A stretch of DNA of 22,016 bases from a virus (Duplodnaviria; Heunggongvirae; Uroviricota; Caudoviricetes): the IMG/VR virus record IMGVR_UViG_2548876856_000003, positions 1 through 22,016 of that record, one strand, 5' to 3'. Under the pieces are notes generated by a model. That model worked only from the letters and a program-made list of their open reading frames with translations, was not told the origin of the DNA and did no database searches. Below, piece after piece: positions 15,845 to 22,016 of the stretch. A program made the position numbers and the translations under genes. How positions within the stretch are numbered: the first letter of the stretch is position 1; each line of letters opens with the position of its first letter.

Positions 15845-17419
15845 ATGTCACAGACAGCTATCACGCTGGCATTTGAACACTGGAAAGCGCAGCAGGGTGC
15901 TACTGGCGAACCAGTGGTGCTTGATGAATTTGTGTTTGCCAGTGTGCCCGGACTGAACCCTGATGCCCCCATTGACCGAAATGAAAAACTGCCACCGGCT
16001 GCACAGATTGTTTACCGGCAGCCCGTTACCCGCACCGGTGTGGTGAATGAAAACGGAGTGGTGTACTCCGCCGTACTGGGGGCAGATGTGGGGGATTTCA
16101 GTTTTAACTGGATCGGTCTGCTGAATAAAGCCAGCGGAACGCTGGCGATGATTGTTTATGCACCGGTGCAGCAAAAGCTGAAAACAAAAGAAGGCCAGCA
16201 GGGTAACGTCCTTACCCGCTCATTCCTGATGGAATACAACGGCGCCCAGACCGAAACCGGAATTACTACACCGGCTGAGACGTGGCAGATCGATTTCACT
16301 GCGCGTATGGCCGGAATGGATGAACGCCAGCGCCTGGAAAACGTGGACATTTACGGCACAGCGGCGTTTTTCGGTGATGGCTGGCTGGTCAGCAAAACCG
16401 GTAATCAGTTTTTCTTGACTAAAGGCACCGGCTATGTGGCGGGGTTACGTGCGTCACTGGCGGCAAACCAGAATATTGCTGTTACCGCAAAGCCGGTAAA
16501 AGTCTGGCTGGATGTGTGCTGGGCGGGAGCGCTGACCAGTGTCTGGAATGTTCAGAGCAAGATTACCGTAGCGGAAAACCTGGCTGATTATGTGCAGAAC
16601 GGCGTAAAGCATTACGTGTTTGCGGTGGCCAGCATTGATGCGAATGGAAATATCAACGATTTGCGGCCAAAAGGGACGCTGAATGAGCAACAGGCAAGCA
16701 ACGATTATCTGCGTAAAGATGCCAGTCTTGCTGATGTAAAAGACAAACCAAAAGCGCGAAAAAACCTTGCGCTTGGAGAGCTGGCGACCCTCGACAGAAA
16801 TGATGTGTTGCCGGTGGGGATACCGGTACCCTGGCCAACGGATACGCCACCAACCGGATGGACATTGATGCAAGGACAGGCTTTTGATAAATCGGCTTAT
16901 CCATTGCTCGCGGGTGCGTATCCTTCCGGGATCATACCTGATATGCGTGGCTGGATAATTAAAGGGAAACCGGCCAGCGGCCGTGCAGTGCTTTCACAGG
17001 AACTGGATGGCATCAAGTCACATACTCACAGCGCAAGTGCATCAAATACGGACTTAGGCACTAAATCAAGCAGTGCCTTTGATTACGGTACTAAAACGGT
17101 CAGCACATTTGACTATGGCACTAAAACCACTAACAGCACCGGAGAGCATGCGCACGGTATAGCTGTTGGTAACACTGGTGCAGGTAATGGCGTTTCAGCG
17201 GGTTATAACTCAGGACTGGGCAATGGAAAGACGGGGAGTGCAGGAGCGCACGCCCATACGGTTGGTATTGGCGCTCATAACCACACCGTCGGAATTGGTG
17301 CTCACAGTCACACGGTGGCAATTGGTGCTCATGGGCACACCATTACTGTGAACGCTGCTGGTAACGCAGAAAACACTGTTAAAAACATTGCTTATAACTA
17401 CATTGTGAGGCTTGCCTGA
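15845..17419 (+). CDS. Tail fibre protein with C-terminal His-x-His repeats
   Basis: 524 aa, AAGGAG RBS. C-terminal region has repeated GAH-x-HTVGI units and ends [11 protein letters not shown], a C-terminus I recognise from enterobacterial phage tail fibres. Followed by a fibre assembly gene. Confidence 0.85.
17246..17350 (+). repeat. Tandem 27-bp (9-codon) imperfect repeats, 3.9 copies, encoding AH-x-HTVGIG units
   Basis: Read directly: GCGCACGCCCATACGGTTGGTATTGGC / GCTCATAACCACACCGTCGGAATTGGT / GCTCACAGTCACACGGTGGCAATTGGT / GCTCATGGGCACACCATTACTGTG, in frame with the fibre gene. Confidence 0.7.
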
Positions 17420-18006
17420 TGACTTTCAAAATGACCGACCAGGATCGGATTATCACTGTTTACAACCTGCTGGAGAGCACCCGGGAATTTATTGGCAAAG
17501 GTGATGCGTTCATTCCTGCCTATACCGGCTTACCAGCCAATTGCACCACGATAGAACCTCCGAAAGCAAAAGCCGGGTTTACTGCCGTTTTTGATGCTGA
17601 GAATCAGGAATGGATTCTCAGTGAAGACCATCGCGGTGAGGTGGTTTTTAGCACCGAAACGGGGCTTGAAGTTACGATCACGGAGCCAGGTACTTATCCG
17701 GACGGAACGACCACTATTGCCCCGGAAAATCCGTGTCAGAAATGGGACGGTGGCGCATGGGTCGATGATGAAGATGCGGCGCGTGAAGCGCAGGTTAATG
17801 AAGCGGAAGCACATAAGAAAACCCTGCTTAATCTGGCAAACGGGGCTATTGCGACATTACAGGATGCCGTTGATCTTGATATGGCAACGGACGACGAAAA
17901 ACAGAGCCTGGTTGAGTTCAAAAAATTCCGTGTGCTGTTAAGTCGTATTAACCCGGAAGATGCACCAGATATTGTCTGGCCGGAGGTACCGGGTAATGTG
18001 GCGTGA
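17419..18006 (+). CDS. Tail fibre assembly protein (Tfa / P2 gpG-like chaperone)
   Basis: 195 aa immediately after the fibre gene, start overlapping the fibre stop by 1 nt. C-terminus has the KKFRVLLSRINPEDAPDIVWPEVP pattern typical of tail fibre assembly proteins. Confidence 0.8.
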   Translation: MTFKMTDQDRIITVYNLLESTREFIGKGDAFIPAYTGLPANCTTIEPPKAKAGFTAVFDAENQEWILSEDHRGEVVFSTETGLEVTITEPGTYPDGTTTIAPENPCQKWDGGAWVDDEDAAREAQVNEAEAHKKTLLNLANGAIATLQDAVDLDMATDDEKQSLVEFKKFRVLLSRINPEDAPDIVWPEVPGNVA

Positions 18007-18721
18007 TGCTCGTCTGGCCTTCACGGATTCGCTGGCTGCGTTAAGTTGTTCCATTGTTCCTGCGCATCCGTGGATCCACGGACTGGGGCAGCAGACAGAA
18101 AATGGGGCATATCTCAGTCCGGTGAATGCTGTCAGATACCTAGCGGAAAGGCTGGCCGGATCCGCTGGTCATGCTGACGTGGTGATCATGATGGTCACTG
18201 GCCAGACGCAGGAGAATTTTATGACCCGCCTTAACGGTCTGGTTGATGTTTTCCCGGCACCGGCATTCACTCAGGTCAGGCGTCTGGCGCAATCCGCTGC
18301 GGCGCTGGCCATCGAAAAAATGCAGATTCCCGCGAAAAGCGGGGCAGGGTTGCCGGTTGCCATTCCGCTGTCTGTGCCAACCACCAGGGAGGCATTGTCC
18401 GCAGCAGCTGTCAGTCAGGCACAAAAAACGGCCAGTGCAGGATTCAGCCTGGACGGGTTAAAGCAGCAACTGGGTGAGTTTGCGCAACTGCGTGACAAAC
18501 TTATCAGTGATGTGTCCAGCGGGCTGGATGATTTACGGGGGAAAAGCGCCAGAGCCTGGGTGTTTACGGGCAACGGCGACACAGCCACCACGTTGCTGGA
18601 GCTGGTAAAAGATATTCCGCAGCCGTCAGCCGTTTATACGGCGGCGGTGATGCTGGTTGGCGATAATCTGGATGGAATAAAAGGAATGATTCATGACTTC
18701 GATCCCAACGCTGGCGCTTAA
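17996..18721 (+). CDS. Hypothetical phage protein (possible baseplate or tail component)
   Basis: 241 aa. GGAGG lies 8 nt upstream of the ATG at 17996, and the gene overlaps the Tfa stop. Same composition as, and tightly coupled to, the neighbouring tail genes. No motif recognised. Confidence 0.4.
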   Translation: MWRDARLAFTDSLAALSCSIVPAHPWIHGLGQQTENGAYLSPVNAVRYLAERLAGSAGHADVVIMMVTGQTQENFMTRLNGLVDVFPAPAFTQVRRLAQSAAALAIEKMQIPAKSGAGLPVAIPLSVPTTREALSAAAVSQAQKTASAGFSLDGLKQQLGEFAQLRDKLISDVSSGLDDLRGKSARAWVFTGNGDTATTLLELVKDIPQPSAVYTAAVMLVGDNLDGIKGMIHDFDPNAGA

Positions 18722-19238
18722 TGGTGAAGCCATACCGCTGAAGAATATTCGTGTGACTGTCTCGCAGCAGTTTCAGGATAAAGACCAGTCCGGGCAGACC
18801 AGCGCCACGACCAAATCAGAGCAGGGTGCAAAGGGAAAAGAGCTGCGTATCAGTGGCGAAATACCATTTAAAAAGCCGGAGATCCTGAAGCGTATTTTTG
18901 AGCTGGCCAGCGCCACCGATACCGGAGGCAATCGCCAGAAATACCGTGTTGCCCACGAGGTGGCCAGAGCCGTTAATTTTCGTGAGGCAACGTTCAGCGG
19001 AACGCTGGATGCCCCACAGCAGGACGGGAAAATGGCCTGGCTGGTCACGTTTACGCTAGCAGAGCATATCAGCGTGCAGGAAAAGCGGGAAGCCCGGGCA
19101 ATAGGCAAAACGTCTGCCCAAAAACAGACTGCCGGTAATGCGGGACAGCCTGGCAGTAAGAGTGCCGGGGAAGATGAAGAAAAACTGACGTGGTTTGAAA
19201 AACGAGTGCTGAAACCCGTCAATGATGCTTTGGGTTAA
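18693..19238 (+). CDS. Hypothetical phage protein (possible baseplate or tail component)
   Basis: 181 aa. AAGGAA RBS 6 nt upstream. Overlaps both neighbours. No motif recognised. Confidence 0.4.
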   Translation: MTSIPTLALNGEAIPLKNIRVTVSQQFQDKDQSGQTSATTKSEQGAKGKELRISGEIPFKKPEILKRIFELASATDTGGNRQKYRVAHEVARAVNFREATFSGTLDAPQQDGKMAWLVTFTLAEHISVQEKREARAIGKTSAQKQTAGNAGQPGSKSAGEDEEKLTWFEKRVLKPVNDALG

Positions 19239-20941
19239 TGATGAAACCAGTTAAACGCCTGTACCTTTCAACGGATGAAGTTCACCTGGCTGAGGCCAGC
19301 CTAGTGCTGGAGCTGAACAGCTGCGGCCGGGGATTTATCACTGCACAGACAGCCACGGATTACACCGGGAAACTGGTACGGCTGGATGTGGGATATTCCG
19401 ATCTGCTTTTGCGCTGGTTTACAGGTTATGTGGAACGCTCACAACCTGCCGAAAACGGTTTTCATCGTCTGTTTGTGCGCGAGCTGGTCGGCGTATTTGA
19501 AAGGATGTGGCCATGTTCATTTCAGCATCCCACTTTGCGCAAGGTAGCCAGCTGGCTGGAGGAAAACAGCGGAATTGCTGTCAGTGTGCCGGATGCCCCA
19601 TACAGCGATAAACCGATCCCCCATTTCACCCACAATGGCACTGGCTATCAGTTGCTGAATAATCTGGGCAGAGCATTCAGTATCCCGGATTACATCTGGT
19701 ACCAGTTGCCGGATGGTTCTCTGTATGTGGGCGGCGCGGAAAAAGCGCTGTTTGCCGGTCGTCCGGTCGATATCCCGGCAGAGTTCAGCCAGGGGGCGGC
19801 TGGCGGTAATTCCATGACGCTGCCGGTGATCCAGAGTCTGCGGCCGGGTGTGGAGCTGAACGGGGAGCGCGTGACCAAAGTTCATCTGACCAATGACACC
19901 ATGGCCATCACCTGGACACCCAGAAACCGCGCAACAGGTCAGCCATTACAGAAAACACCTGCACAGCGCCAGATTGAAAGCCATTACCCGGAACTGGCTT
20001 CCGGGCTGCATCTGCCAAAACTGGCCAGAGTGGTGGCACCCAGCGAGGAGGTGAAAAGCGGTAATTTTGCCGACCCGTTCCGGCCGCGCTATGCCGTTGA
20101 TGTGCAGCTGCTTGATGCAGACGGCAACCCGGACAACCAGACGCCGGTTTATTCTGCGGTGCCGCTGCCGGTACCTATGGCCGGGAATGACTCTGGCATG
20201 TTCCAGTTCCCACCAGAAGGGACGCTGGTTGAAGTTGCGTTTACCGGAGGCCGCCCGGATAAACCGTTTATCAGGCAGACACTGCCGGATGGTACCAGCC
20301 TGCCGGATGTTAAGCCCGGTGAGCAGCTGCAACAGCAGCGGGCTGAAGTGTCGCAGCGTGTTACCCAGGCTGGCGACTGGGTGAGGCAGACCGATCAGAC
20401 CATCAGCGAAACATCGATGGCGCGGACGGTTAAAGCCGATACGGAACAGCGTGATCTGGTCACTCGTGAAACCACGGTTAAAGCCACTGATAAGACTACG
20501 GTGCTGGGTACCTCCACCCTGATGGCGGGAGCCATTCAACAGGTGAGTGCCGGTGATTTTAGCCAGGCCGTGAAGGGTAACAGACTGGCCAGTATTGAAG
20601 GCAATGACGAAACCGATATTTCCGGGAAACAGTCCACTAAGGTGGCCGGAACCGTGGATGTTGATGTGGGGGGAACCCTGACTGAAAAGATTGCTGCATT
20701 ACGCAAATCTGTGGCATCGGGCGGTCAGCAGATTATGGGGCCAACCGTCCATATTGGCAGTGAGAGCGTCAACACCCTGACCATGATGCTGGACACCATT
20801 GATTTACTGGCAGAGCTGGCGCAGCAGTGTGCGAGCCATTCACACCCCAGCGTGGGTACGCCAACCAATGCCGGCGCATTTACCCAGACAGCAGAGAAGG
20901 CCGGACAGACCCGGAGTAAGTACCAGAAAATAATCGCCTGA
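19238..20941 (+). CDS. Baseplate central spike protein, gpV-like, with roughly 280-aa N-terminal extension
   Basis: 567 aa. The mid-protein segment FPPEGTLVEVAFTGGRPDKPFI fits the gpV/gp5 OB-fold signature. C-terminal region is Thr/Val-rich (beta-helix-like) and ends with SHSHP, an HxH motif like the metal-binding spike apex. Followed by an intrinsic terminator. Confidence 0.6.
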   Translation: MMKPVKRLYLSTDEVHLAEASLVLELNSCGRGFITAQTATDYTGKLVRLDVGYSDLLLRWFTGYVERSQPAENGFHRLFVRELVGVFERMWPCSFQHPTLRKVASWLEENSGIAVSVPDAPYSDKPIPHFTHNGTGYQLLNNLGRAFSIPDYIWYQLPDGSLYVGGAEKALFAGRPVDIPAEFSQGAAGGNSMTLPVIQSLRPGVELNGERVTKVHLTNDTMAITWTPRNRATGQPLQKTPAQRQIESHYPELASGLHLPKLARVVAPSEEVKSGNFADPFRPRYAVDVQLLDADGNPDNQTPVYSAVPLPVPMAGNDSGMFQFPPEGTLVEVAFTGGRPDKPFIRQTLPDGTSLPDVKPGEQLQQQRAEVSQRVTQAGDWVRQTDQTISETSMARTVKADTEQRDLVTRETTVKATDKTTVLGTSTLMAGAIQQVSAGDFSQAVKGNRLASIEGNDETDISGKQSTKVAGTVDVDVGGTLTEKIAALRKSVASGGQQIMGPTVHIGSESVNTLTMMLDTIDLLAELAQQCASHSHPSVGTPTNAGAFTQTAEKAGQTRSKYQKIIA

Positions 20942-20952
20942 TCATCCCATCG

Positions 20953-20978
20953 GCCCGCGCATGTTACGGGCTTTTTTG
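20953..20978 (+). terminator. Rho-independent terminator closing the rightward late operon
   Basis: GCCCG (20953-20957), a 9-nt loop, CGGGC (20967-20971), then TTTTTT (20972-20977), 12 nt after the spike stop codon. Confidence 0.65.
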
Positions 20979-21208
20979 TACCCATCCCCAGACCCCACAA
21001 GACGCATTCTAAGCGCTTCTTTCATCTGACCACTACCGCGCAAGACCACAAAAGGATCTGTGCTGTCACGCTACGCTGACGGCGTTACACGCTGACAAAA
21101 TAAATCTTTCGGAGACAAAAACGGCACTACACCGCACCCGCCTGCGGTTTCTGGATCGATAAAATTTTTCAGTTTTCTTTTTCTACAAACCCGAGCACCA
21201 GACAGCGC

Positions 21209-21241
21209 CAGTTCTGGCAGCTTTGCGGAAAACCAGAACTG
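21209..21241. repeat. 9-bp perfect inverted repeat CAGTTCTGG / CCAGAACTG with a 15-nt spacer
   Basis: Read directly from the sequence. The right arm overlaps an 11-bp motif, CAGAACTGAAA, that recurs at 21439-21449. Confidence 0.5.
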
Positions 21242-21491
21242 AAAAGTATGAAAGGAATTTCAGTATTTTTCAGTGAAAAAGATTAGTGAAGGAGCACTTA
21301 TTGGTTGTAACCAACAGATAAACAAGAAAAAATGATTTTTTTGTGAGTTTTGTAAATTGATAGCTTGTGATAATAGGTTATCGAAGGAAGCCCACATCTG
21401 AGAGTTGGTGCGGGCTGGTTAGAAGTTTACATAATCAACAGAACTGAAATTTTCTAAAATTTAAAGTGCACTGTTCCGATTTTAGGTTTTA

Positions 21492-22001
21492 TTAATTCAT
21501 CAGTTTCTTTTGCTTTGCAGCAGACGTAATTACCTTTTTATTTATAGTAAATACATTTATTTCTGGCACGGATGTATAATCACCATCATCAGTGATGATA
21601 TTCGTAATGCCATGGTTTAACATAGTTTCATGAATCATGAGGTCATAACCATCTAAGGTATTTCCAGTCATTTTTGATGCACAAGCATCTGTTAATTTTT
21701 GGCATATTGTTAAGTCAACTTGCGGTGCAATCTGTTTTACTTGAGCCCACGAAACCTCAACTTCTTTCATTGCAAGTTGCCTTTCCTTTGCATATTTATG
21801 CCTGAATTCCTTAGTCCTAATATTTGATTTTATTGTTGCCTCGTGTATTTCTCTTTCAGTGGACTCAATTATATGTGCGAGTTCGGCTAAAGATAAGCCA
21901 GAGTGAAACAGTTGTGAGTTGTTAGAAATACAATCGCTAATAAAATTAACGTAGGTATTTAGATACTGTCTGTTAGACGGTATGCCTTTTGTATAAGTCA
22001 T
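21492..22001 (-). CDS. Hypothetical protein, AT-rich; weak PIN-like nuclease pattern in the C-terminal half; may extend beyond the window end
   Basis: 169-aa ORF from the track. The frame is still open for the 15 nt between the ATG and the window end, so the true start may lie outside. The segment DLMIHETMLNHGITNIITDDGDY resembles the C-terminal strand-helix-strand of PIN-domain nucleases. AT-rich, unlike the phage genes. Confidence 0.45.
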   Translation of the reverse strand: MTYTKGIPSNRQYLNTYVNFISDCISNNSQLFHSGLSLAELAHIIESTEREIHEATIKSNIRTKEFRHKYAKERQLAMKEVEVSWAQVKQIAPQVDLTICQKLTDACASKMTGNTLDGYDLMIHETMLNHGITNIITDDGDYTSVPEINVFTINKKVITSAAKQKKLMN

Positions 22002-22016
22002 CCAATACCAAACATT

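Follow-up and report, generated by a model that had tools for sequence, protein, structure and literature searches.

The 22,016 nt stretch of viral DNA analysed here (positions 1 to 22,016 of IMG/VR record IMGVR_UViG_2548876856_000003; hereafter the window) represents the late region of a temperate myovirus of the HP1/ESSI-2 type (family Peduoviridae). The last gene of its late operon belongs to the HP1 orf35 family, and its product is very probably the central device with which the contractile tail punctures the cell, hub, spike and tip being combined in a single polypeptide of 567 amino acids. The open reading frame (ORF), with its stop codon included, lies on the plus strand at exactly the position given in a preliminary description made from the sequence. 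The hub–spike fusion is correct but was already on record for HP1 (genus Hpunavirus): in Table S1 of a study that includes phage ACA1 (PMC10612066, 2023), ACA1 gp48 is aligned with the N-terminal part of the HP1 protein (P51739) and with P2 gpD, gp49 is aligned with the C-terminal part of P51739 and with gpV (3QR8), and, according to the authors, HP1 has its gpD and gpV homologues fused. What is added here is confirmation at the level of the fold, the domain boundaries, a quantified distribution of the split and fused forms, and a predicted helical tip that carries the HxH motif.

Membership of the orf35 family is evident from both full-length similarity and gene order. The protein matches PHROG 2258 (‘baseplate protein’) with an E value of 1e-278, residues 2–567 aligning with positions 1–544 of the 544-position profile, and has 1278 homologues at E≤1e-5, the closest being a Citrobacter portucalensis protein (97 % identity); a family profile reaches 929 clusters (50 % identity) at E≤1e-3. 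Identity is 91–93 % to the proteins of Salmonella and Escherichia ESSI-2-type phages, 78 % to that of ESSI-2 itself, 41–42 % to HP2 orf35, and about 35–40 % to Kappa kp45 and phiO18P gp46. The proteins of the Haemophilus phages HP1/HP2 (orf35, UniProt P51739), the Vibrio phage Kappa/K139, the Aeromonas phage phiO18P and the Cronobacter phage ESSI-2 are thus full-length orthologues at 35–93 % identity, and they share the position at the end of the operon, the fused architecture and the HxH motif. The window opens with an Ogr/Delta zinc-finger regulator, portal and large terminase (minus strand), followed by scaffold, capsid, small terminase, gpL, gpR and a gpS-like gene, then sheath (DUF2586), tube (HP1_Orf24), holin, M15 endolysin and spanins, and then tail assembly chaperone, tape measure, DUF2590, Baseplate_J, Tail_P2_I, tail fibre and fibre assembly genes. 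The late operon ends in homologues of HP1 orf33, orf34 and orf35, the first two (PHROG 1677 and Pfam HP1_ORF34) lying directly upstream of the 567-codon gene in an order common to HP2, Kappa, phiO18P and the window. No second hub or spike gene was recognised among the late ORFs of the window, all of which were assigned except the orf33-like gene.

The predicted structure extends what sequence searches reveal about the protein. An AlphaFold2 monomer model, built from an alignment of 86 sequences (enterics, Pasteurellaceae, Aeromonas, Vibrio and others), has a mean predicted local distance difference test score (pLDDT) of 85.3, and residues 1–230 score mostly above 90. When this model was compared with the PDB using Foldseek, the top group of matches consisted of full-length VgrG and extracellular contractile injection system (eCIS) spikes (9jg9_G, 4.6e-18; AlgoCIS 7aef_q, 6.8e-18), together with those of the Streptomyces and Anabaena contractile injection systems (CIS), Pvc8, Afp8 and VgrG1. 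A second group matched the hub only (PhiTE, Mu gp44, P1 gp6, MuSo2, E217, Pa193 and the pyocin R2 hub) and a third the spike only (Mu gp45, P2 gpV, the R2 spike and SN Orf41). The nine best BFVD matches were short stand-alone proteins of hub size, several of them named ‘Tail protein’. In the model the N-terminal domain takes the hub fold, the spike part contains an OB-fold, a triple-stranded beta-helix follows it as judged by a match to T4 gp5, and the whole has the fused, VgrG-type order of hub, OB-fold and beta-helix. Beyond the linker the model has helices at 241–249 and 251–255, and it is here that stand-alone spike proteins begin. PDB sequence searches found no solved structure for any orf35-family member.

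For the spike there is support from sequence as well. Residues 414–508 (nt 20477–20761) match residues 482–576 of T4 gp5 with E values of 5e-11 to 8e-11 (phmmer against PDB sequences), with about 39 % identity over 88 residues as counted from the alignment, and a profile of stand-alone spikes matches the OB-fold plus beta-helix of VgrG (E 1.8e-8) and also Afp8 and Pvc8. The Pfam Phage_base_V family, which represents the OB-fold, matches residues 309–345 with an E value of 1e-4, slightly under its cutoff. The T4 gp5-like stretch includes about 32 residues that are missing from HP2 orf35 and about 24 that are missing from Kappa kp45, such that the beta-helix in the window is longer than those of its orthologues and the extra part is the more T4 gp5-like; a family-wide profile matches T4 gp5 far more weakly (E 2e-3). 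This may reflect variation in helix length through gain and loss of repeats, or possibly mosaic exchange.

The preliminary description had proposed a gpV/gp5-type OB-fold preceded by a hub-like domain, a VgrG-like arrangement within a phage tail. The OB-fold is borne out by the model, by Foldseek and by the VgrG profile match, the fold search on the N-terminal region (AlphaFold2 monomer, Foldseek against the PDB) did recover a hub, and the fusion draws support from the fold, from split homologues and from the ACA1/ACA2 study. The profile searches suggested at the same time were only partly favourable, Phage_base_V being matched below threshold and Phage_GPD not at all.

A number of observations weigh against our interpretation. 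The matches to Phage_base_V, Gp5_C and Gp5_trimer_C all fall under the Pfam gathering cutoffs; Phage_GPD is matched neither by the window protein (E≤10) nor by its 86 relatives (E≤0.01); hhalign comparison of N-terminal and family profiles with P2 gpD gives a probability below 1 %, and a hub-only profile has no significant match among PDB sequences. Compared with Mu gp44 or gpD the hub lacks about 100 residues (219 of 325 are aligned), and one hub sub-domain has no counterpart in it. The model is of a monomer only, and the trimer, the ring and the histidine cage go beyond it. The orf33-like neighbour is without an assigned function and could carry a missing hub function. Comparison by hhalign of three family profiles with the single sequences of P2 gpD and gpV also revealed no similarity. 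As there is no sequence link to Phage_GPD, P2 gpD or the solved hubs, the hub assignment rests on predicted structure, and the relationship of residues 1–226 to hubs is visible in the modelled fold only. Both this lack of Phage_GPD or gpD similarity and the small size of the domain compared with classical hubs could be accommodated if residues 1–226 were instead an accessory domain on a gpV-like spike, acting as an adaptor or interacting with a receptor or the cell wall, with the true hub elsewhere; the orf33-like product, a structural protein of 241 residues, would be an example. We regard this as improbable. Solved small hubs of 229–287 amino acids do exist (Pam3 gp19 and E217 gp41), so a hub of 226 residues is not anomalous.

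Phages in which the same device is encoded by two genes offer an independent view of the domain boundary. Canoevirus 1.202.O has two overlapping genes in place of one, gp40 (229 aa) and gp41 (231 aa); Pseudoalteromonas phage ACA2 has overlapping genes for gp48 (‘P2 gpD-like’) and gp49 (‘cell puncturing device’); and Pseudomonas phage phi3 has an unannotated 232-aa ORF and a ‘Gp5 domain’ coding sequence. ACA1/ACA2 gp48 has been described as ‘gpD-like’, a mounting domain of the cell puncturing device, and gp49 as the tail spike; mass spectrometry of ACA1 virions detected gp46, gp48 and gp49 (PMC10612066). All of these phages have the modules of the window protein in the same order but cut at the linker, the profile breaking between positions of about 225 and 237 in a local hmmsearch, which is the linker predicted by the model. 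Among the loci fetched, 41 encode hub (profile 1–225) and spike (profile 236–540) as overlapping genes and 83 keep the fused form as one ORF, although this ratio is biased by sampling, as a first scan of viral contigs gave only close fused relatives and the split loci were sampled by a second scan with the Canoevirus hub gene. A search of representatives gives an unbiased view: the best 150 (at 50 % identity) comprise 14 full-length fused proteins, 14 fragments spanning the junction, 36 proteins with the hub only (median 231 aa) and 86 with the spike only (median 318 aa), and the split state is therefore much the more diverse. A neighbour-joining/parsimony tree, albeit a rough one with 156 columns and a midpoint root, has ‘split’ at its root and groups the fused proteins into a few clades (enteric, HP1/HP2 and Kappa/phiO18P), which hints at an ancestral split state.

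At 39 of 40 split loci the reading frame of the spike gene is shifted by -1 from that of the hub gene, and a one-base insertion or deletion would thus be enough to create the fusion. This, and the greater diversity of the split state, could be taken to mean that the long ORF arose as an artefact or by a recent mishap, through a frameshift or a sequencing error that joined two normally separate genes, possibly in a defective prophage. We give this explanation practically no credence, since the comparative data already contradict it: the fused ORF is kept in the 83 fetched loci and in 14 distinct clusters at 50 % identity, it occurs in isolated phages of four genera (those of HP1/HP2, Kappa/K139, phiO18P and ESSI-2), and the linker is in frame with both of its flanks conserved. 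Programmed -1 frameshifting in the split phages was also considered and rejected: there is no slippery heptamer, and the purine-rich GAGG/GGAGG-like stretch upstream of the spike start resembles a Shine–Dalgarno sequence in the sequences printed. In the phi3 record (KT887559.1) the hub gene (locus L005, 3004–3702) carries no annotation and the spike half is entered as ‘Gp5 domain-containing protein’; the hub gene of phage C5a has likewise been left out of its annotation (PMC10612066).

The best whole-chain structural matches, to VgrG, Afp8, Pvc8, AlgoCIS and the Anabaena and Streptomyces CIS, are to proteins in which hub and spike are also fused, and the stand-alone-spike profile is nearer in sequence to VgrG than to gpV. 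It could accordingly be asked whether the locus is a phage-tail-like bacteriocin, an eCIS or an element related to type VI secretion systems (T6SS), and its product a true, effector-delivering VgrG. This is very unlikely. The operon set that contains the gene also has portal, both terminases, scaffold, capsid, head completion and lysis genes, the close relatives are isolated infectious phages, and PAAR, Hcp, TssB/C, TssK/F/G and effector genes are all lacking among the assigned genes of the window. Scores against the VgrG TIGRFAMs are 17.7 bits for TIGR01646 (cutoff 121.8) and 14.7 bits for TIGR03361 (cutoff 186.35). The hub is also some 100–150 residues smaller than those of VgrG and the eCIS spikes; these have PAAR as a separate cap, while the window protein closes with an HxH tip of its own. 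The protein is a member of the HP1 orf35 family and not of the VgrG family.

Among phage tails, P2 gpD and gpV, Mu gp44 and gp45, and PA0628 and PA0616 of the R2 pyocin have the same folds and the same inferred roles as the two parts of the window protein, but in each of these systems hub and spike are separate genes, which in P2 lie in different operons. The puncturing device of P2 is composed of gpD (hub) and gpV (spike plus apex) and that of T4 of gp27, gp5 and gp5.4. P2 gpD and gpV have no detectable sequence similarity to the window protein, whose tip is predicted to be helical, unlike the apex described for gpV. The C-terminal helix of T4 gp5 is recognisably homologous to the beta-helix in the window, but the window protein has neither the lysozyme domain of gp5 nor a separate PAAR tip, and its hub is fused, unlike that of T4.

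The C-terminal tip requires separate consideration. The sequence SHSHP at residues 533–537 (nt 20834–20848) includes an HxH motif 31 residues before the C terminus, H534 and H536 each being kept in 95 % of the 86 aligned sequences, and an HxH motif lies within the last 60 amino acids of 71 of the 86 spike-only representatives and 11 of the 14 fused ones. Leiman and colleagues have reported that an HxH close to the C terminus marks a spike with a built-in apex, in which three copies of the motif cage an Fe ion, and that such spikes require no PAAR tip; the 567-residue protein has its motif in this position. Locally the motif, of the form H-[ST]-H-x(0–2)-P, resembles the HTHKHP of gpV. The gpV-like HxH apex of the preliminary description nevertheless holds only as far as the motif and its conservation, for the Pfam Apex family (PF18946) has no match in the window protein and matches one of the 86 family members (E 0.0026), and the model gives a helical hairpin and not a gpV-like apex. 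In this hairpin a helix at 513–533 is followed by a turn that carries the HxH, and the chain returns as a second helix at 545–563, with pLDDT values of 84–93. Hydrophobic positions occur in pairs every three to four residues of the first helix across the family, and this helix is therefore buried on two faces, while the second has a single hydrophobic stripe (86 sequences); a trimeric six-helix bundle would be expected to show this pattern in its inner and outer helices.

Two types of tip are known for contractile spikes, the gpV-type apex and the separate PAAR cap. We suggest tentatively, and with the balance somewhat against it, that the orf35 family may have a third, a trimeric six-helix bundle in which residues 513–532 would form an inner coiled coil and residues 545–566 an outer helix, with an HxH metal cage at the hairpin turn that would make up the point. 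If this is true, the orf35 family would have an all-in-one hub, spike and tip with an exchangeable tip module. Only just short of an even chance is given to the broader alternative that the last 57 residues do not make an iron-loaded apex of the gpV type, and are either a six-helix-bundle cap, with or without metal at its HxH, or a region wrongly modelled as helical in the AlphaFold monomer. The confident hairpin, the heptad-like pattern kept across the 86 sequences, the near absence of Apex matches and the variability of the tip among relatives would all fit this alternative; the resemblance to HTHKHP and the accepted use of a C-terminal HxH as the marker of a built-in apex speak against it, as does the fact that a trimeric beta apex cannot show itself in a monomer model. 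The variability takes two forms: a few relatives (P0334, P0365 and P0383) keep the hairpin without HxH, and in Canoevirus-type spikes and some fused proteins the helical HxH tip is replaced by a Cys/His-rich ‘C-x-C...G(K/T)PH’ tail. In the Canoevirus-type spike (locus L003, 4666–5361) this tail reads CTGASICPFMGKPHVDVSTTVYAGK, and an ORF of 65 amino acids (L003, 5364–5561) directly follows the gene. The same tail is present in the fused representatives P0246 and P0247, and the type of tip thus varies independently of the fusion state.

From published knowledge of contractile tails we infer the following course of events for a fused device. The protein would be a trimer, by analogy with every solved homologue, and its three hub domains would form a ring at the centre of the baseplate that mediates between the threefold spike and the sixfold tube. 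This ring would nucleate assembly of the wedges, from the DUF2590/gp25-like, Baseplate_J and Tail_P2_I proteins of the operon, and cap the tube; the OB-fold, the intertwined beta-helix and the tapered tip would make a rigid needle, in which three HxH motifs may cage a metal ion. On contraction of the sheath the tube would push the needle across the outer membrane. The periplasm is the known final location of P2 gpV. Since hub and spike are one chain in the orf35 family, the spike cannot detach, and the whole hub–spike unit would have to leave the end of the tube to open the channel, as VgrG does.

Table 1. Coordinates in the window of the fused gene, its domains and its upstream neighbours
Feature	Position	Strand	Basis
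Whole gene, HP1 orf35 orthologue, fused hub–spike–tip, 567 aa	19238..20941	+	ORF listing, PHROG 2258, identities
Hub domain, residues 1–226, compact, predicted gp27/P2 gpD/Mu gp44 fold	19238..19915	+	
Linker, residues 227–240, poorly conserved, prone to insertion and deletion, at the fusion junction	19916..19957	+	Alignment gaps, pLDDT ~80
Spike N-terminal helix, residues 241–258, conserved FPEL..G.HLPK	19958..20011	+	Model
OB-fold of central spike, residues 259–352	20012..20293	+	
Triple-stranded beta-helix, residues 353–510	20294..20767	+	T4 gp5 match; strand intertwining not visible in monomer
C-terminal tip, residues 511–567, predicted helix–turn–helix hairpin	20768..20938	+	
HxH motif H534-S535-H536, putative trimer histidine cage for a metal ion	20837..20845	+	Conservation
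Upstream partner gene, HP1 orf34-like	18693..19238	+	Pfam PF25759 HP1_ORF34 ‘baseplate complex protein’, E 1e-54
HP1 orf33-like gene, 241 aa from internal ATG	17996..18721	+	PHROG 1677, unknown function

The two genes upstream (Table 1) also precede the fused gene in HP2, Kappa and phiO18P. The product of the orf34-like gene is a probable component of the hub complex; its ACA2 homologue has been annotated as ‘putative P2 gpU-like’, an assignment flagged as uncertain by its authors (PMC10612066). Since the ATG of the 567-codon ORF overlaps the TAA of the orf34-like gene (TAATGATG), the two are probably translationally coupled; a second ATG is present at 19241. The mechanically called ORF of the orf33-like gene begins at 17960, but its homologues are consistently 241 amino acids long and the true start is therefore probably the internal ATG. 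The ACA1 homologue, gp46, is found in virions and is without a P2 equivalent (PMC10612066). We considered the orf33-like protein as a possible second hub, but an AlphaFold2 model from 40 homologues was unusable (pLDDT 36) and Pfam, NCBIfam and PDB searches gave no signal, and it was left without an assignment.

Several other features of these genomes deserve mention. The tail fibre gene (15845–17419, plus strand) encodes C-terminal His-rich repeats (window 16900–17419) with several consecutive HxH motifs; motifs of this kind in trimeric phage fibres reportedly bind Fe ions. The ORF at 970–1293 on the minus strand, which adjoins the portal gene, encodes an Ogr/Delta-type zinc-finger activator of late genes (Pfam E 9e-20), and the first 1 kb or so of the window is GC-poor (35 %). 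The GC content falls from about 57 % to 37.5 % immediately beyond the last tail gene (window 20942–22016), and this segment, with a reverse-strand ORF at 21492–22001 (169 aa; no PHROG match and a sub-threshold PIN-domain match, E 4e-4) and a terminator-like hairpin on the minus strand at 21135–21121, is probably a moron or the boundary between prophage and host. In ACA2 (locus L004, 930–2545) a diversity-generating retroelement, consisting of a reverse transcriptase and an accessory variability determinant, lies between the antireceptor gene and the equivalents of orf33, orf34 and orf35; nothing similar is present in the window.

In summary, the fused devices do not overturn the current understanding of contractile tails, but they do allow genes of this family to be annotated more usefully. 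Nearly all of the orf35-family source names, among those listed, are ‘hypothetical protein’, and PHROGs offers only ‘baseplate protein’; the gene can now be described as a fusion of baseplate hub and central spike, and orf34 named as the probable partner of this gene. An HxH tip that is possibly helical would be one more variant among the spike tips already known. The orf35 family is a phage-side parallel to the VgrG fusion of the T6SS and the eCIS, and the existence of closely related fused and split devices provides a natural experiment on the separation of spike and hub during infection.

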